Virus record (IMG/VR): IMGVR_UViG_3300036770_008702 | Span: 19,952 to 83,951 of that record | Source of the DNA: a virus | Length of the DNA: 64,000 nucleotides | Reading direction: 5' to 3' (one strand) | Shown: in pieces, positions 6,111-61,999 of the stretch | Numbering within the stretch: position 1 is the stretch's first letter | Layout of the letters: each line of letters begins with the position of its first letter | The notes under the pieces: generated by a model | The model's database searches: none | What the model was told of the DNA's origin: nothing | Seen by the model: only the letters and a program-made list of their open reading frames with translations | Made by a program: the position numbers and the translations under genes

Positions 6111-7135
6111 GCTACTCACCGAAGGGCGAACTCATTCTTTACCGCACCGAGGACGGCCGAACCACGATCCAGCTTCGCGCGGTCGATGGCACCGCCTGGT
6201 TGACACAGGCGGACATCGCCGCCCTGTTCGACACCACCAAGCAGAATGTCAGCCTGCACCTTAAAAACATCTTTTCCGACAAAGAGTTGGACCCTACCGC
6301 AGTTGTCAAGGAATCCTTGACAACTGCCGCCGACGGCAAGGCCTACCCGACCCAGCACTACAACCTCGACGCCATCCTCGCGGTTGGCTACCGCGTGCGC
6401 TCGCCCCGCGGCAGCCAGTTTCGCCGCTGGGCGACCACCGTGCTGCGCGAATACCTGGTGAAGGGCTTCTCCCTCAACGACGAGCGACTCAAGGACCCCG
6501 CCGCCACGGACTACTTCGACGAGCTGCTGGCGCGCATCCGCGATATCCGCGCCTCGGAGAAGCGTTTCTACCAGAAGGTCCGCGACCTCTTCAAAGCCAC
6601 CAGCGTGGACTACGACGGCACCGACGACGCCGCCAAAACGTTCTTCGCCACCATCCAGAACAAGCTCGTCTTCGCCGTCACCGGCCGGACCGCGGCGGAG
6701 CTGATCGTGGAGCGGGCCGATCCGACCAAACCCAACATGGCGCTCACCAGTTGGAAAGGGCCGACGGTCCGCAAAGGCGATGTCACCATCTCGAAGAACT
6801 ATCTCAACGCCGAGGAGATCGAATCCCTCAACCGCCTGACCACGATGTTTCTGGACTTCGCCGACGAGCGCGCCCGCCGTCGGCGTGAAACCCGCATGGC
6901 CGACTGGCTGGCCCAGACCGATCGCTTCCTCGCATTCAACGAACGTGACGTCCTGCGCAACGCCGGCAGCATCTCGCATGATCGGATGGAAGCAATTGCC
7001 CATGGCCGCTTCGAAACCTTCGACGCCAACCGCCGCGCCTCCGAACTGGCCGCCGCGGAAGAGGAAGCCGCGGCCGAGATGAACCAACTGGAGCAGGAGG
7101 CGCAGCGACTTCGGCGCCCGCGCAAGCCAAAGTGA
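6107..7135 (+). CDS. rhuM: RhuM-family (virulence RhuM / putative DNA-binding) protein
   Basis: [65 protein letters not shown]; this family is commonly found inside type I R-M operons. Confidence 0.88.
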
Positions 7136-19057: not shown

Positions 19058-20305
19058 CTAGGGCGCCGTCAGCGTCTGCAGCAGGGCGTTGGACAGCCGG
19101 CGAGGGAAGTACTGGAACGCCCGGCAGGTGGCGTTGGCGAGGGAGGATGCCGAGGGCTCCGACCAAGGGGCCGCGCCGATCGCGATGCGGGCCGGGGTCG
19201 CCGGCAGAGGGCAAAGGGCGTGGCTGCTGACGGTGCCACCATCCAGGCAGAACGCTGCGTCGAAGTTGGCCCAGGCCATCGCCATCCGGAAGGTCACCGC
19301 ATTGGCGAAGCTGAACGGCCGGGTCAGCGCCGCATAGCCAGCGCCACCCGCGCGCGTGTTCAGCACCAGCTGTCCGGTGGTGAAGCGTGACAGGTAGAAG
19401 GTGTCGTTGAAGGTCAGGCCGAAGCCGCCATAGACCAGGGCACTGCCACCGGTCTGCGCCGGCACGATCCGGTTCACATACTCGAAGATCATCGTTCCCT
19501 CGCTGGGGTTGAACCAGCGCGTGTCGACGTCGAGGTAGAGGTTGTCGGCCCCGCGGGTGACCGAGGCGGTCGTAGTCGGGATGTAGCTCGTCGGGTTGGT
19601 CAGCGTGGCCTCCGCCTCGAGCTGTGCACCCCAGGCATAGATGCTGTTGGTGCTGGCGGGCGGGGTGTTGTCGGCCGCGGCGGGTCCGATCGACGCGGCG
19701 ATGGCGGTCACCGTGGTGCTGGTGGCCTCGATCGCGCAGCGATACCAGCCGGCGCCGTGCGCCTCGATGGTCTTGGCGCTGTAGAGCAAGGTACCGGCGC
19801 CGGCGGTGTGGGTCCCGACCGCGCCGCTGACCAGGTTGAACCAGACCTGGATGGTATTGCTGCCGTCGCTCAGTTCCAGCACCGCGAAGCCACTGGCGGC
19901 GGCCTTGAGGAACACCACGAAGGCGATGCCGCGCCCGGCGGTGATGGTGACGGCCTGCGTCAGCTTGCCGCCGCTGGCGGCCGCGGTGAGGGTGTCCGCC
20001 GTCGTGGTGCCATCCGGGGCCATGGTGGCATTCGGCGTGACGGTGAGGTTCGCCGCGGACCAGGGCGCGGTGTCCAGTTCCTCGCTGCGCAACAGCAGGT
20101 TGGTGCGCTGGGGCTCGATCAGCAGCCCCTCGCAGACGCCCGTGACCGGGTGGTGCTGCCAACGCCCGGTGTTGGCCGGCACGGCCCGAATGAGGCCTGT
20201 GCGCCCGACATTGCGGGCGGCCCCGGTGCGGGTGAAGCGGGCGCGCGGGTCGATCAACCCGGGGGCCTTGTGGAACTGCCAGTTGATGGCGGGCTCGACG
20301 GACAT
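19058..20305 (-). CDS. Phage fibre/spike protein with carbohydrate-binding/LamG-like domains (putative receptor-binding protein)
   Basis: GLLIEPQRTNLLLRSEE, IYAWGAQLE, PTSYIPTT motifs typical of phage fibre proteins; beta-rich; distal tail position. Confidence 0.8.
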   Translation of the reverse strand: MSVEPAINWQFHKAPGLIDPRARFTRTGAARNVGRTGLIRAVPANTGRWQHHPVTGVCEGLLIEPQRTNLLLRSEELDTAPWSAANLTVTPNATMAPDGTTTADTLTAAASGGKLTQAVTITAGRGIAFVVFLKAAASGFAVLELSDGSNTIQVWFNLVSGAVGTHTAGAGTLLYSAKTIEAHGAGWYRCAIEATSTTVTAIAASIGPAAADNTPPASTNSIYAWGAQLEAEATLTNPTSYIPTTTASVTRGADNLYLDVDTRWFNPSEGTMIFEYVNRIVPAQTGGSALVYGGFGLTFNDTFYLSRFTTGQLVLNTRAGGAGYAALTRPFSFANAVTFRMAMAWANFDAAFCLDGGTVSSHALCPLPATPARIAIGAAPWSEPSASSLANATCRAFQYFPRRLSNALLQTLTAP

Positions 20306-56935: not shown

Positions 56936-57078
56936 TGGGGGGAGCTCCGTTCTGTCGGTGCTCCGTTCGTCGAATGGGAGACTGCCGGGCCCCGACGCGG
57001 TGGAGCAGACCGTCCTGGTATTTCCGCGTCGCCGCGGTGTTGCATTTCCAGGAAGACCCGGCAGCGAACCGGGTGGGA

Positions 57079-57306
57079 TCAGGCGGCGCTCATCTCCTTG
57101 CGCTGCGCTTCCTCGAAGCTTTCGATATCGGAAAGGACGTAGGTCACGTGACCGCCGAGTTTGAAATACGGCGGCCCCTTTCCCTCGGAGCGCCACCGCT
57201 CCAGCGTGCGCACCGACACGTCCCAGCGCGTCGCCAGCTGGCGCTGGTTGATGTGCCGCACCGCAGTGCCGTCACACCGGCCGGCCAAGTAATGATGCTT
57301 GCTCAT
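57079..57306 (-). CDS. AlpA/Xis-like HTH DNA-binding protein
   Basis: INQRQLATRWDVSVRTLERWRSEGKGPPYFKLGGHVTY. Confidence 0.88.
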   Translation of the reverse strand: MSKHHYLAGRCDGTAVRHINQRQLATRWDVSVRTLERWRSEGKGPPYFKLGGHVTYVLSDIESFEEAQRKEMSAA

Positions 57307-57602
57307 GCCGGGCACCTACCGGCGCGGCTTCCGAAGTGTCGGGGTGCCGAGTTGTACCCCCTGAACCCTGCCGCTTCTCCATGAGATGAGATGATCGAGG
57401 ATGTGCATCGCGCTGCCTCGCGGACGTCGGGCGCGGGCTCGCTGACGTAGATCGCCAGCAGCGGCGTCCCATCGGCATGGGTGCCAGCGTCCTCGATTTG
57501 GTAGTTGCAGTTGGGCTCGCAGACCTCGGTCAGTTCCCAGCGGCGATAGAGTCCTGGAAGACGCCTGAAATCCGCGAGCGACAGATCGGCAGTGCGGTTC
57601 AT
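57303..57602 (-). CDS. Hypothetical protein
   Basis: FRRLPGLYRRWEL...GTPLLAIY; first gene after the bipartite motif. Confidence 0.6.
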   Translation of the reverse strand: MNRTADLSLADFRRLPGLYRRWELTEVCEPNCNYQIEDAGTHADGTPLLAIYVSEPAPDVREAARCTSSIISSHGEAAGFRGYNSAPRHFGSRAGRCPA

Positions 57603-57651
57603 GCTTGCCTGCTTTCGGCTGAAGGGACGGCGCTCGGAGCGCTCGAACGGG

Positions 57652-57683
57652 AAAAGCCATCGGCGAAGGCAGATCGGGACATC
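57652..57683 (-). promoter_or_regulatory. Bipartite motif GATGTCCCG-N15-TGGCTTTT, candidate phage-sigma promoter for the replication operon
   Basis: Identical boxes and spacing to 61202-61233; 50 nt upstream of ATG 57602. Confidence 0.65.
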
Positions 57684-57686
57684 GGC

Positions 57687-58409
57687 TCAGGGGATTTCCG
57701 CCAGGGCGTCGCGCAGCTTGGGCATCGCGCGCTGGTAGCGCTTGCGGGCGGCGGCCTCGGTCAGGCCCATCTCGACGGCGACCTCGGCCTGCGAGAAACC
57801 CTCGATCGCCACGCGGATCACCAGAAGGGCGTCCGCGCCGATCAGCTTGTGCAGGTCGTCCTGCAGGTGCGCATCTTCCGCCCCGGGCTGTCGCCCCGCC
57901 TGATCGGCGGGCACGTCGTTGATCTCGATATCGCTGGCCAGATCTTCGCAGGCTGCTTCGCGCTTGCGCGCGCGAATCATGTCGCGCTCGACGTTCCGCA
58001 GGACTGAGGCTGCGATCCAGTTGACGCGCCCCAGGTCGAGGCCGCGGACTGCCTCAGTGGTGCGCGCCAGCACGTCGGACGTCATCTCGTTGGCTGTGCC
58101 GATCCTGCGCCAGATCGAGCGGCGCCGGATGGCGTCGAGGCCGGGCCAGAGCGCCAGCAACAGCAGCGTCAGGGCGCAGTCGGACGCGGGTCCGTCGCCC
58201 TGCGCAGCTACGACCAGCGCGGAAAGAATCACGTTCTTCCGGGCCGGATCGCCGGTCGTACGATGCAGCCCGTCAAGAAGGGCCGCTGGATCGCGGAACG
58301 GCGCGAGGGCGGCCTGCGTGCGCCGGACGGCGTCGAAACTACGCTGGAAGTGAAGGCTCGTGGAGGAATGCATGAGGTGATCACGGATCTCGTGCCACGC
58401 GAAGGACAT
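57687..58409 (-). CDS. Prophage-encoded ECF-like sigma-70 factor
   Basis: Region 4 HTH EGFSQAEVAVEMGLTEAAARKRYQRA; region-2-like WIAASVLRNVERDMIR. Confidence 0.78.
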   Translation of the reverse strand: MSFAWHEIRDHLMHSSTSLHFQRSFDAVRRTQAALAPFRDPAALLDGLHRTTGDPARKNVILSALVVAAQGDGPASDCALTLLLLALWPGLDAIRRRSIWRRIGTANEMTSDVLARTTEAVRGLDLGRVNWIAASVLRNVERDMIRARKREAACEDLASDIEINDVPADQAGRQPGAEDAHLQDDLHKLIGADALLVIRVAIEGFSQAEVAVEMGLTEAAARKRYQRAMPKLRDALAEIP

Positions 58410-58438
58410 CGGACGCCTGCCTTGCGGCCAGGCGTCCG
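58410..58438 (-). promoter_or_regulatory. RBS-occluding hairpin immediately 5' of the sigma start codon
   Basis: mRNA CGGACGCCUG-GCC-GCAA-GG-CAGGCGUCCG-AUG: perfect 10-bp arms, GCAA loop. Confidence 0.7.
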
Positions 58439-58505
58439 GCGCCTTGTCGTGGCCAGGTCAGGACGTCGCGCGTCTCTGCGATTTCAGGGGGGGTAACTGT
58501 GCGCG

Positions 58506-58751
58506 TCAGCGCGCGGGCGCGGTCGCGTTGTTCAGCGTGCTGCAGCCACGGCAGGTGGCCTGAACCGGAAAGCCCACGAGATACTCGTGCCCCCGCGCGA
58601 AGCGCAGGTGCATCCGGCCGTCCCGGCAGACTCCGAGCAGCTTGTCACAGCGCGTGCAGCGCCATTCCGCGTTCAGGGTGGTGGGCTTGGTCGTCGCGGC
58701 GCCGGTCCAGCTCGTCGGGGCTGCCTGGCGCGAGGGGAAGGGAGTCGGCAT
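58506..58751 (-). CDS. Com-like zinc-finger protein
   Basis: WRCTRCDKLLG...ATCRGCSTLN matches the Mu Com pattern RCxxCxKLL...CxRCxxxN; GAGGAG RBS. Confidence 0.72.
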   Translation of the reverse strand: MPTPFPSRQAAPTSWTGAATTKPTTLNAEWRCTRCDKLLGVCRDGRMHLRFARGHEYLVGFPVQATCRGCSTLNNATAPAR

Positions 58752-58829
58752 GGGAGTGCTCCTCTATGTGGAGCCCCTCCAGTAATCAGCGGTTCGTTAG
58801 ACCGTCTCCCGCTTCATTTTAGACGGCCT

Positions 58830-61079
58830 TTAGACGACGGCCTCGACGGGCGCTTCGACCGGTTCGGGTGCTGGCCGCGGCGCGACGATCAGGCGCCAGT
58901 AGCCGCGCTTCGCCCCCTTTGCGATGTAGAAATCTATGATGTCCTGCCACATCTCCTTGCGGAACGCCTGCTGGGGACTCTTTGCCGAGAAACCCTTCAT
59001 CAGGTCGCCGACGTAAACGTCCGCGGTGCCCGTTGCATACGCGGCGACAAGGCGTTCGAAGATCGTAAGTTGTTCATTTCCAGCGAGGTACAGCGGCTCA
59101 CGGCCGGGAATGTAGAGCGTCCCGGATTGCGTGCTGCTGCGGTCGACACGCGGCGACCCGCCGCCGTGCGCGAGCGAGTGGCTGCTCCGATATGCGAGTT
59201 CCAGGCCGTCGCGGGAGAAGAGCATCTCGTCGTCAGCGGGTGATAGATGTAACAGAAGCGGTACGACCACGTTCGACCCGAGATGCGATGGCATTTCTTC
59301 GCTTGCCGCCAGGATGATCCCGACGCCAGATGTATTCCGGGCTCGCAACATCAAATCCAGCCGCTGTGCAGTTCTTGGGTCATTGATGCGCCTGGCAAAA
59401 TAGACGAGAACGTCGGCATCATCGATCCGCATTGCACCCAGAAGATTCAGGTCCCGGTCGAGGATCTGGGCTGCCCGCTTGTTCAAGATCGGTTTCATCA
59501 GCCGCATGAGCGTCTCTTGAAGCCACTGGCCGTTGATGGCAAACATCTTGATATCCGATACAGGTCGCCTGCCTGCGTCCTGGCCGAACGGCCCCTCCGT
59601 GCGGACCATGCCTGCTGTCGCCGAGGGCTTGATGGTGCCTTCCCCGTCGATGTCGTCGTCCTCGATGAGGACCACATCCTGCCGATCACGGCGCTCGAGC
59701 AGCCCGCCTTCGATAAGACGGCTGGCGTCGAGCCCCAGTTCCAGAAGATACGCGCCGCTGACCTCGTCCTCGACCCGGTCGTAGAGTTGAACTAGCTGGG
59801 GGAATATCGCGCGCAGGTCGTCGGGTGCGATCTGCCGGAATGCGCTGAGAATCCCCCATTCCTTCAGGAGCGCAAAGCCAAGGCTGCGCTCTTCCGGATC
59901 CATCTTACTCTGTAGATTGCAGCTCTTCGTGCCGGCGATCGTGATGTTGATCGTCCGCTCCTTCTCGTCGCCGACGCGATTGTAGGCGACCGCGATCCCG
60001 ATCCGGCTGAACGCCTCGGCGCGCCGAAAGATGTTTCCGGCCCCAAGATACTGGTCCGCCACTTCCTCGATATCGTCGTCAACGGTGACCTTCAGCTGCA
60101 GCTTACGGCGCCAAGTGCCTAGCCGAACCTCGGCTTCCAGAACGCGCGCAAACGCGAGCTGGTAGCCCTCGATCTCGGGAGGCTTCAGAAGGAGCGAAGT
60201 ACGGAACCGGGATAGGTTGTAACGCTTCCAGGTCAATGGCTTCTGAGAGATGTCGTGCCCGAGGGCGATTTCGGCGAACGCGTCGCTGACCGTCTGGCGG
60301 ACCACCGGGCTGTCGGCGCAGACCTCGATCTGGCGCAGCGATGGCGTGTAAATCAGCGTCGCCTCGTTCGGCGGGCGATAGTAGATGGTGTCCCTGCGTC
60401 CGTCATGCCGGTGGTCGTGGACGCTCGATAGCGGCCCGCCATGCCGGACGATTAGCATGATCGATGCAGGGTGCGAGTCGGTGGCCGGCAGATTGAGAGC
60501 CTTCACCTCGCATGAAATCTCCGGTTTCAGCTCAAGCATGTCCTTGATCTTTGTGGCCAGCGCCGCCTCGTCGATTGCCGCAGCATCGAGCGCCATGTGG
60601 TTCTCGAGTTCGACCTCGAAGGCGTCATAGAGCTTGCCATGGTCACGGAACTGCCGGGCGAAATGGAAGCTCTCTGCATCCGCGAAAGTCTTGTACGCGT
60701 TCAAGTAGACCCATATGCTTCTGCATAGCTGATCGGGCTGGCGCTCGAATTGTTCCGATTGGCCGCCATCGAGCCGCTGCTCGACGATCGTCGTAAGGGA
60801 GGTGACGCCTTTGCCGTCCGCGAGAGACCGGATCCTTCGTGCTCGCTGCTCTGCTGGCTGCAGTTCGTCCTGATCGAATTCTGACAGCGTCTGGATGAGT
60901 CTTTGCCTGAACATCTCGACCGCTTTTTTGTCAGAGTGATCAGGCAGGTCCTCGGGCAACTTGAAGTCTGGCTCGTTATCGCCCTCCCGAAAAGCAAGGG
61001 CTGCACGGGCGAGGTCGACGCGCGCATCTTCGATCAGCCTCAGGACATGGGGACCGATCCGATTTGCTTTACGCGCCAT
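58830..61079 (-). CDS. Large hypothetical protein (749 aa) with possible C-terminal winged-helix domain
   Basis: Long ORF; C-terminus EQLTIFERLV...GDLMKGF...GAKRGYWRL resembles an OmpR-type wHTH. Confidence 0.85.
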   Translation of the reverse strand: MARKANRIGPHVLRLIEDARVDLARAALAFREGDNEPDFKLPEDLPDHSDKKAVEMFRQRLIQTLSEFDQDELQPAEQRARRIRSLADGKGVTSLTTIVEQRLDGGQSEQFERQPDQLCRSIWVYLNAYKTFADAESFHFARQFRDHGKLYDAFEVELENHMALDAAAIDEAALATKIKDMLELKPEISCEVKALNLPATDSHPASIMLIVRHGGPLSSVHDHRHDGRRDTIYYRPPNEATLIYTPSLRQIEVCADSPVVRQTVSDAFAEIALGHDISQKPLTWKRYNLSRFRTSLLLKPPEIEGYQLAFARVLEAEVRLGTWRRKLQLKVTVDDDIEEVADQYLGAGNIFRRAEAFSRIGIAVAYNRVGDEKERTINITIAGTKSCNLQSKMDPEERSLGFALLKEWGILSAFRQIAPDDLRAIFPQLVQLYDRVEDEVSGAYLLELGLDASRLIEGGLLERRDRQDVVLIEDDDIDGEGTIKPSATAGMVRTEGPFGQDAGRRPVSDIKMFAINGQWLQETLMRLMKPILNKRAAQILDRDLNLLGAMRIDDADVLVYFARRINDPRTAQRLDLMLRARNTSGVGIILAASEEMPSHLGSNVVVPLLLHLSPADDEMLFSRDGLELAYRSSHSLAHGGGSPRVDRSSTQSGTLYIPGREPLYLAGNEQLTIFERLVAAYATGTADVYVGDLMKGFSAKSPQQAFRKEMWQDIIDFYIAKGAKRGYWRLIVAPRPAPEPVEAPVEAVV

Positions 61080-61201
61080 TGATTCACCGCAACGAACAAC
61101 TGATCAGGATTGATTCAACCCAAAATAATCATGGACGATGGGATTCGGTGCAAGATCGGATTTTCTGCCCTCGTTCGCAATTTAGAGAGTCGCCGTCGTT
61201 G

Positions 61202-61233
61202 GATGTCCCGTCTCAAGCCCCTGGGTGGCTTTT
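61202..61233 (+). promoter_or_regulatory. Bipartite motif GATGTCCCG-N15-TGGCTTTT, candidate phage-sigma promoter for the recombinase operon
   Basis: Identical boxes and spacing to 57652-57683; 38 nt upstream of ATG 61272. Confidence 0.65.
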
Positions 61234-61271
61234 GATCGGTAACGACATCACCGAACACGCCCAACCGAGCC

Positions 61272-61490
61272 ATGAATCGCTCCAGCCCGCCCACCACCGG
61301 TCCCCATCTCCCACCGCACCTCCGCGAGGTCTGCGCCATCCTGGCCGCCGGCCTGCTGCGGCTGCGCAGCCGCAGCGCCGAGGAATGTGCCCGTGACGCC
61401 GCGGAGACCGGGGACCACGGAGAGTTTCGCCTACACTACGTGCCCCACCAGCGCGGTCATGCAACCCGGACCAACCGGAGAGACGCATGA
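61272..61490 (+). CDS. Small hypothetical protein preceding DUF2924
   Basis: LREVCAILAAGLLRLR; ATGA overlap with the next gene. Confidence 0.7.
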   Translation: MNRSSPPTTGPHLPPHLREVCAILAAGLLRLRSRSAEECARDAAETGDHGEFRLHYVPHQRGHATRTNRRDA

Positions 61491-61999
61491 CCAGACTGGC
61501 CAAACCCAAGGGCGCCGCGGCCACCGCCGCGCCCACCACGTTCCCCGCCATCCCGCCTGCCGACGTGCTGGGGCGCCTGGCGGCCCTGAAGACCGCGCCC
61601 GCCGCCGAGTTGCAGGCGCAGTGGCGAGAGCTCTTCGGCAAGGAGGCACCGCCGCACAACCGGACCTTCCTGCAGAGTCGACTGGCATACCGGGTGCAGG
61701 AGCTCGCTTACGGCGGGTTGAAGCCCGAGACGCTGCGGCGGCTCGAGGCGTTGGGCGAGCAGCTGGATGGCGGTAACCCGGTGCTGCGGCGGATCCGGGT
61801 CGACGACAAGCCGGTCACCGGCACGAAGCTGGTGCGGAACCACCAGGGGGTCGAGCACACCGTGACCGTGCTGGTCGACGGGTATTCCTGGGAAGGCCGC
61901 CCCTACAAGTCGCTGTCGGCCATCGCGCGCGCCATCACCGGCACGCGCTGGAATGGCTGGACGTTTTTCGGGATTGCGAACCGGCGGGGGTCAGCATGA
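61487..61999 (+). CDS. DUF2924-domain protein
   Basis: LAYRVQELAYGGL, YKSLSAIARAITGTRWNGWTFFG. Confidence 0.9.
   Translation: MTRLAKPKGAAATAAPTTFPAIPPADVLGRLAALKTAPAAELQAQWRELFGKEAPPHNRTFLQSRLAYRVQELAYGGLKPETLRRLEALGEQLDGGNPVLRRIRVDDKPVTGTKLVRNHQGVEHTVTVLVDGYSWEGRPYKSLSAIARAITGTRWNGWTFFGIANRRGSA

Follow-up and report, generated by a model that had tools for sequence, protein, structure and literature searches.

A conserved two-state RNA leader between a Com-like zinc-ribbon gene and an ECF-like sigma factor gene: a candidate protein-responsive translational switch in alphaproteobacterial prophages

We describe a compact module in a 64,000-nucleotide (nt) stretch of viral DNA (positions 19,952 to 83,951 of IMG/VR record IMGVR_UViG_3300036770_008702, a provirus record of 83,951 bases), referred to here as the window. 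On its minus strand, a gene for a small zinc-ribbon protein is followed by a conserved RNA leader and then by the gene for a sigma factor. The leader has two folds that exclude each other: a hairpin, which we call the lock, that hides the sigma translation start, and a fold built from two copies of a small hairpin motif (mini-hairpins 1 and 2), the second of which shares nucleotides with the lock. Both folds are conserved and show covariation, and the linkage of the leader to its two genes is invariable. We propose that the zinc-ribbon protein binds the mini-hairpins, probably co-transcriptionally, and that it would thereby block the lock and license translation of the sigma factor; on sequence, modelling and analogy to the com-mom system of phage Mu, we give this proposal about an even chance. 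We advance more tentatively, and would sooner call possible than probable, the broader description of the leader as an undescribed protein-responsive translational RNA switch, in which tandem 16-18 nt hairpins (bulged A, C-N-N-G-A loop) serve as an anti-sequestor and a sister family of Com gates a candidate master-regulator sigma factor in widespread alphaproteobacterial temperate phages.

Coordinates of the sigma, zinc-ribbon and leader features refer to the minus strand of the window (Table 1). For the leader we built a covariance model, R1 (positions 1-76), on which the window coordinate equals 58480 minus the model position; its alignment holds 65 distinct sequences, and related loci are cited by L numbers.

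The spacer between the two genes runs from 58505 to 58410, and the 96 nt given for it by a sequence-only reading of this DNA agree with the open reading frame (ORF) coordinates. That reading had also placed a hairpin directly against the sigma AUG, burying the Shine-Dalgarno (SD)-like purine run AAGGCAGG, and both the sequence and folding bear it out: the AUG (58409-58407) directly adjoins the last base of the lock (58410), and the purine run (58423..58416, minus strand) lies within the loop and 3' arm. The lock has a lower stem of 8 bp and, beyond a U/G bulge region, a 3-bp top (GCC/GGC) capped by a GCAA tetraloop; it includes a 10-nt perfect inverted repeat and folds by itself at -23.2 kcal/mol; a longer hairpin that also pairs the first codons reaches -41.4 kcal/mol. 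For free RNA the computed probability of being unpaired, P(unpaired), is ~0 for G59-G70 (model positions). Folding alone gives only z = -2.06 for 141 nt, and the case for more than chance therefore rests on conservation.

That conservation is pronounced. Over 67 distinct loci the 70-nt leader is the most conserved stretch of the region, with a column identity of 0.990 and 79% of columns invariant; at the same loci the zinc-ribbon gene reaches 0.961 and sigma 0.905, or 0.848 at its third codon positions. In the R1 alignment 94.2% of the lock's cells are paired, against 21-45% with the partners slid, and compensatory changes fall in 7 pairs; the observed values were reached by 0 of 500 shuffles. 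The lower stem taken separately is 91% paired, with compensatory changes in 5 of its 8 pairs. Pairs of the outer helix, which extends the lock into the first codons, are partly conserved and one of them covaries (AU 28 / GC 12), a weaker support than that for the inner stems. Two loci (L087, L094) have a GUG start inside the stem.

Of 78 sources, 69 have a single R1 hit each, which coincides with the leader wherever the zinc-ribbon and sigma genes were called, and no Rfam 15 family matches at E <= 1 over 57000-61500 on either strand. Distant leaders are still recognisable by the consensus (A)G-A-GGCG-C-N-N-G-A-CGCC-C-UGA..GGCC, followed after ~6 nt by G-A-GGCG-C-N-N-G-A-CGCC-C-GGCC, a loop, GGC(C)-A-GGCGUC and then AUG. 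Covariation in homologues, named in the sequence-only reading as a way of checking the hairpin, is thus found in the stems, and the gene pair together with its start-hiding hairpin is conserved over great divergence. A promoter and terminator scan of the spacer returned no terminator and no sigma-70-type promoter, which is consistent with co-transcription of the zinc ribbon and sigma.

The second fold comes from a motif that reads G, a bulged A, GGCG, a five-base loop C-N-N-G-A, CGCC and C, and that occurs in two copies, 31 nt apart in the window and 30-34 nt apart across loci. Mini-hairpin 1 (copy 1) retains 95% of its pairs, two of which show compensatory changes (GC 49 / AU 16; GC 64 / CG 1). 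Mini-hairpin 2 (copy 2) is 100% paired across the 65 distinct sequences, with compensatory changes in 4 of 5 pairs, in an alignment that was not fitted to it. Its 3' half (CGCC) is the core of the lock's 5' arm, and in the locked state AAGGCG, its 5' half, is base-paired to the AUG and codon 2; because the CGCC segment belongs to both structures, mini-hairpin 2 and the lock are mutually exclusive. A change in this shared segment is accompanied by a change in both partners: four loci (L087, L094, L126, L160) share a three-way covariation from G-C-G to A-U-A at one position, L168 has such a change at a second, and position 35 of R1 covaries with position 50 and also with the codon-2 base of the outer helix. 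The mini-hairpin 2 helix has five one-sided changes, all of them to G-U, which points to selection on the sense strand of RNA and not on duplex DNA.

An alternative fold had been foreseen before these comparisons, as a pairing of an upstream GACGUCC with the 5' arm of the lock. An alternative fold does exist and does covary, in the form of mini-hairpin 2; the GACGUCC pairing itself did not hold up, for although 6 of its 7 positions pair in the window, only 66% of cells are paired in the family, no better than in the shuffle controls, and 2 of the 7 pairs are mostly unpaired. Pairing of the 3' arm with copy 1 was rejected as well: it is feasible yet without compensatory change, and the 3' arm covaries with copy 2 instead.

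Four unpaired bases of each copy, the bulged A and the C, G and A of the loop, are unchanged in 64-65 of the 65 sequences, and the two middle loop bases vary freely. Invariant unpaired bases around free positions are the pattern expected of a protein-binding site. The exact motif occurs nowhere else in the window, where there is a single one-mismatch match, compatible with chance. When mini-hairpin 2 alone is forced in modelling, the 3' arm re-pairs with copy 1; when both mini-hairpins are forced, the mean P(unpaired) of the initiation region rises from 0.21 to 0.47. The presence of two copies would be explained by this difference.

Leaders of some relatives depart from this layout. In a distant group with a 79-nt spacer (L121, L138, L169, L170, L185 and similar), the single-sequence minimum free energy (MFE) structure pairs the 5' half of copy 1 with sigma codons 2-7; if this is real, both mini-hairpins would compete there with helices that enclose the start region. 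In a different arrangement of these parts, L091, L115, L154, L157, L179 (141-nt spacer) and L176 have a sigma-like ORF of ~506-555 amino acids (aa) and a canonical AAGGAG that lies outside the conserved hairpin, before a UUG start; the gene may be fused or mis-started. Metatranscriptome contigs of relatives (runs X14, X17 and X18) bridge the zinc ribbon and leader and the leader and sigma; such contigs cannot show transcript, end or strand and may reflect DNA carry-over, and we do not use them as evidence. One of them, a 109-nt contig of run X18, spans exactly window positions 58369-58477 (the leader and the first 40 nt of sigma) at a depth several-fold above that of neighbouring contigs. This excess is likely to come from many strains collapsed onto the most conserved stretch, with a stable leader fragment as the alternative.

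The association of leader and genes extends well beyond the window. A search of 185,579 species genomes for the zinc ribbon found relatives in 182, nearly all of them Alphaproteobacteria, and in ~75 of the 80 loci kept for neighbourhood comparison a sigma homologue follows the zinc ribbon with spacing and start codon unchanged. Cultured carriers of the module include Paracoccus yeei CCUG 46822 (L001), Wenxinia marina DSM 24838 (L003) and Gemmobacter nectariphilus DSM 15620 (L005). More distant forms, found through a degenerate DNA pattern for EWRCxxCGKLLG, came from 32 viral and 98 metagenome stretches, 80 of which were kept as loci. Of the 32 viral stretches, 30 have a sigma-like ORF of ~250 aa 74-116 nt downstream, and the zinc ribbon is followed by such an ORF at the same distance in almost every metagenome contig long enough to show it; the gene context of the most distant zinc-ribbon clusters was sampled via this DNA-pattern route only. 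Linkage of zinc ribbon, leader and sigma persists down to sigma profile scores of 15-30 bits (~20% identity). In the reverse approach, with sigma as the seed, we obtained 238 viral contigs, and all 71 loci with enough sequence upstream carry a zinc-ribbon gene and leader. Hundreds of alphaproteobacterial prophages and metagenome contigs thus hold the module. A phylum sample of 401 genomes gave two matches only and nothing new from either, and tblastn with the zinc-ribbon and sigma proteins found no match in 50,697 phage records. Two further occurrences, at ~90% identity, lie in a metagenome-assembled genome (MAG) labelled Candidatus Woesearchaeota (L078) and in a Rhodocyclaceae MAG (L007); a binning artefact or recent prophage transfer is most likely in these cases.

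The zinc-ribbon family comprises 455 close relatives, with 366 representative clusters at 50% identity, and shares the core EWRCxxCGKLLG...RLHIRF.RGHEY.V..P....CRxCGTLNE. In the window protein the core reads EWRCxRCxKLLG...H.RF.RGHEY...P...CRxCxTLN and is preceded by ~25 disordered N-terminal residues. C32, C67 and C70 are invariant in the family and W30, R31, C35, L38, L39, G40, Y57, P62 and N74 nearly so, and the AlphaFold (AF2) model is an all-beta ribbon with a core pLDDT (predicted local distance difference test) of ~90. The N-terminal knuckle of the window protein, WRCTRCDKLLG, carries the Com signature RCxxCxKLL, which is conserved family-wide. An hhalign comparison of the family profile with a profile of true Mu-type Com proteins gave a probability of 74% and E = 2.7e-5 over 12 columns that cover the first knuckle, and PF10122 (Zn_ribbon_Com), hit weakly by 28 of 67 diverse relatives (best E = 1.3e-5), is the commonest Pfam family among those relatives. 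Neither a PDB sequence search nor Foldseek nor a VIA-wide comparison (best Z = 3.1) returned anything usable structurally for the zinc ribbon, and its fold is uninformative on function for want of a usable structural neighbour. "Com-like" is fair as a statement of resemblance and probably as one of distant kinship. Just 5' of the zinc-ribbon gene (58752-58835), a strong ribosome-binding site, GAGGAG, precedes the AUG by 7 nt; the site of sigma, by contrast, is weak and buried. NCBI automatically names true Com proteins "Com family DNA-binding transcriptional regulator", yet Com has been characterised as an RNA-binding translational activator (PMC6483171).

That the downstream gene encodes a sigma factor, as the sequence-only reading had it, was corroborated by domain and structure searches. 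Region 4 matches PF08281 (Sigma70_r4_2) at 26.7 bits, above the cut-off of 25.7, over residues 199-231; TIGR02937 matches residues 104-236 at 33 bits, below its cut-off of 42.9, and Pfam has no region 2 match. A stretch of ~100 aa extends N-terminally ahead of the part that matches ECF proteins. An AF2 model made from 49 diverse relatives has a pLDDT of 88.9, and its top matches in the Foldseek PDB search are all ECF sigma factors (probability ~1.0, with a weak E of 5e-3 and template modelling (TM) scores of 0.2-0.47). On these predictions we take the protein to be a divergent, N-terminally extended sigma factor of ECF-like type. In all of its relatives, homology begins at the same start codon as in the window.

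Taken together with the two folds, these features suggest how the module might work. A free leader would form the long hairpin, in which the inner stem would bury the weak SD-like purines and end at the AUG, the outer helix would pair the AUG and the first codons, and sigma would stay untranslated. In the alternative state, mini-hairpin 2 would draw on nucleotides of the lock's 5' side. The zinc ribbon, supplied by the gene just upstream on the same transcript, would recognise, in each mini-hairpin, the bulged A and the C..GA of the loop, most likely as the RNA emerges from the polymerase and ahead of the synthesis of the 3' arm. Once the protein occupied the two copies, that arm would lack a partner and ribosomes could start on sigma, which would then drive the outward-facing promoters, of the form GATGTCCCG-N15-TGGCTTTT, of replication and recombinase operons. 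The contact between zinc ribbon and RNA, the activating direction of its effect and its timing are the steps that we infer; capture during transcription is suggested because the open state costs ~17-19 kcal/mol, which makes equilibrium melting unlikely.

Several points weigh against this proposal. The energy by which the open state exceeds the lock in the model is too costly for a small protein at equilibrium, and a kinetic mechanism has to be assumed given the stability of the lock. The name Com-like, given to the protein in the earlier reading, stands for its RCxxCxKLL knuckle, which aligns with that of Mu Com, and does not extend to membership of the Com family in Pfam: neither Pfam nor NCBIfam gives a match to the window protein, and PF10122 is absent even at E <= 10, in the same Pfam search in which Mu Com scores 36.8 bits to PF10122. 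No more than the 12 columns mentioned can be aligned with true Com, and the second knuckle (C67, C70) lies 31 residues past the first, compared with ~14-16 in Mu-type Com. The loop-closing pair is G-C here and C-G in the reported targets of Mu Com. With the zinc-ribbon gene on the same transcript, the gate adds a delay or threshold and not an independent input. Many of the covarying cells stem from few clades, and the independent events are correspondingly few. Finally, three loci (L096, L117, L135), in which copy 1 is missing and copy 2 and the lock are kept, have a zinc-ribbon gene followed at once by a strong GC-rich hairpin and a U-rich run, which resemble a terminator; a separate promoter may serve sigma in these phages.

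The RNA evidence is silent on what binds the leader, and the zinc ribbon has neither a confirmed RNA-binding family membership nor a structural match, which leaves room for a real RNA switch or lock that is opened by another factor, with the zinc ribbon doing a different job. Candidate openers would be a host protein or helicase, the 749-aa protein encoded ahead of the zinc ribbon, sigma itself (autoregulation), temperature or a small ligand. We regard this as unlikely: across related genome loci no other protein of the module is as well conserved as the zinc ribbon, at 85-98% identity (sigma, 61-82%; the 749-aa protein, 28-85%); it invariably adjoins the leader and carries the Com knuckle, and a duplicated motif with invariant unpaired bases is more readily explained by a small protein that recognises sequence than by a ligand pocket or thermometer. 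The extreme stability of the lock would also suit a constitutive throttle, or an element of mRNA stability or processing, that holds sigma low. The zinc ribbon would then act at the level of protein or DNA, as a sigma partner, a sigma antagonist or a transcription factor (the last being what NCBI names the Com family). Small zinc-binding regulators commonly accompany ECF sigma factors, and 3 of the 67 diverse relatives show weak matches to the anti-sigma Fin zinc ribbon (best E = 0.017), but these matches are far weaker and rarer than those to Com, and anti-sigma genes normally lie 3' of the sigma gene, whereas the zinc-ribbon gene lies 5'. A simple throttle would need neither a second covarying fold nor a duplicated motif with invariant loop bases, and we consider it an improbable account of the leader.

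The same sequences could in principle act as DNA, the repeated motif and the inverted repeat being operators for a DNA-binding protein at a promoter in the spacer and the RNA folding incidental. GGCG..CGCC and the 10-bp inverted repeat are palindromic in DNA too, and the copies stand ~three helical turns (31 bp) apart in many loci; their spacing nevertheless varies over 30-34 nt, the spacer has no promoter-like site, and the pairing reaches into coding sequence. Nor would duplex DNA account for the one-sided changes, which on the sense strand are G-U and not A-C, or for a three-way covariation in which one segment follows two alternative partners, which is meaningless for a duplex. We therefore hold the operator explanation to be very improbable, and return to the proposal that the zinc ribbon opens the leader in comparing the module with known systems.

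To our knowledge, com-mom is almost the sole bacterial example of a dedicated protein activator of translation, and the known relatives gate DNA-modification enzymes. A partial precedent for the competition between folds is given by antitermination of the BglG/SacY/LicT type, where a protein-stabilised small hairpin (ribonucleic antiterminator, RAT) shares nucleotides with a more stable competitor, the terminator, and binding during transcription decides between them. Those systems control transcription termination through unrelated CAT-domain proteins, whereas here the competitor hairpin hides a translation start. With ECF (group IV) and phage-encoded sigma factors the regulated protein shares sigma region 4 and an ECF-like fold; it differs from ECF sigma factors in its N-terminal extension of ~100 aa, in a region 2 below family cut-offs and in the lack of an anti-sigma gene downstream, and its control appears to be translational.

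The closest parallel is Mu com-mom itself. The target of Mu Com is the loop motif CC(N)2-3GAG, in which GA is essential; it belongs to a short hairpin that adjoins and overlaps the hairpin holding the mom start codon (PMC6483171). Here too, the transcript encodes a small CxxC...CxxC protein with RCxxCxKLL just 5' of the gene presumed to be its target. The start codon of that gene is enclosed in a hairpin (in Mu, the translation inhibition structure, TIS), which is overlapped on its immediate 5' side by a short hairpin whose conserved loop ends in GA (PMC6483171). The differences are equally clear: the target is a sigma factor and not a DNA-modification enzyme, the genes do not overlap, the zinc ribbon falls outside PF10122 and its knuckles stand ~15 residues further apart, the hairpin motif comes in two tandem copies, and the lock is far more stable. 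In the Mu loop a C-G pair closes CC(N)2-3GAG; the present loop, C-N-N-G-A closed by G-C, has its C...GA pattern but lacks the C and G that flank it. Known Com relatives gate mom or DNA methyltransferases (PMC3299994). The methyltransferase modules of Mu-like and P2-like prophages (FluMu and others) resemble the present case in placing a Com-type gate on a gene other than mom, but their proteins are true PF10122 members and their targets are still DNA-modification enzymes. In the present module, a sister family would gate a transcription factor that probably heads the lytic programme.

What would be new, within translational gating of the Com type, is the use of a sister protein family, the two-copy RNA design and the kind of target: Com-type logic would here act on a sigma factor, the probable trigger of replication and excision in a prophage family. 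Full-text literature searches found no paper tying a Com-like protein to a sigma factor, and a Paracoccus virome paper does not discuss the module. If the proposal is true, the regulatory role of the Com superfamily is broader than now known, and the module offers both a sharply defined protein-RNA recognition motif with a two-state leader, small enough for structural and synthetic-biology work, and a way into the lysogeny/lysis decision of these prophages. Even without the link to the protein, the leader is a robust new candidate RNA family.

Table 1 Features of the module and its surroundings in the window.
Feature	Position	Strand	Basis
Bipartite promoter-like motif GATGTCCCG-N15-TGGCTTTT, directed towards the replication operon downstream	57652..57683	minus	exact copy
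ECF-like sigma factor, 240 aa	57687..58409	minus	PF08281, TIGR02937, AF2 and Foldseek
Outer helix of the long hairpin, 58440-58453 with 58394-58408 (U and G of the AUG and codons 2-5)	58394..58453	minus	MFE structure
Conserved RNA leader (R1, positions 1-76)	58404..58479	minus	sole R1 hit in the window, 102.5 bits
Lock (sequestering hairpin), CGGACGCCUG-GCC-GCAA-GGC-A-GGCGUCCG	58410..58438	minus	sequence, folding, covariation
Mini-hairpin 2 (copy 2): A, bulged A, GGCG, loop CCGGA, CGCC, U	58430..58445	minus	covariation
Mini-hairpin 1 (copy 1): A-G, bulged A, GACG, loop CGCGA, CGUC, C-U	58460..58477	minus	conservation, compensatory changes
Zinc-ribbon (Com-like) ORF, 81 aa	58506..58751 (stop 58508-58506)	minus	ORF call
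749-aa protein, function not assigned, first gene of the run	58830..61079	minus	phrog_37634, sole match
Second exact copy of GATGTCCCG-N15-TGGCTTTT, facing the DUF2924 / serine recombinase operon	61202..61233	plus	motif search, Pfam neighbours

The genes of the run stand in the order 749-aa protein, zinc ribbon, sigma. Downstream of sigma lies an operon of replication type (HTH_17 / AAA_24), and on the opposite side a divergent operon encodes DUF2924 and serine recombinase proteins. The window holds two exact copies of GATGTCCCG-N15-TGGCTTTT, one 3' of sigma and the other divergently 5' of the 749-aa gene, and these sites retain their relative positions in most related loci (e.g., L001:5072-5103). 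Because their positions are kept across loci, they are likely sigma targets, and we take the motifs to be probably promoters read by sigma. Some loci have a third copy ~1.5 kb further on (L017, L021, L045 at 6576-6607). The synteny of the 749-aa gene is kept in nearly all related loci; at the same loci (L001-L080) the gene is far more variable than the zinc ribbon, and it resembles a swappable sensor or specificity module.

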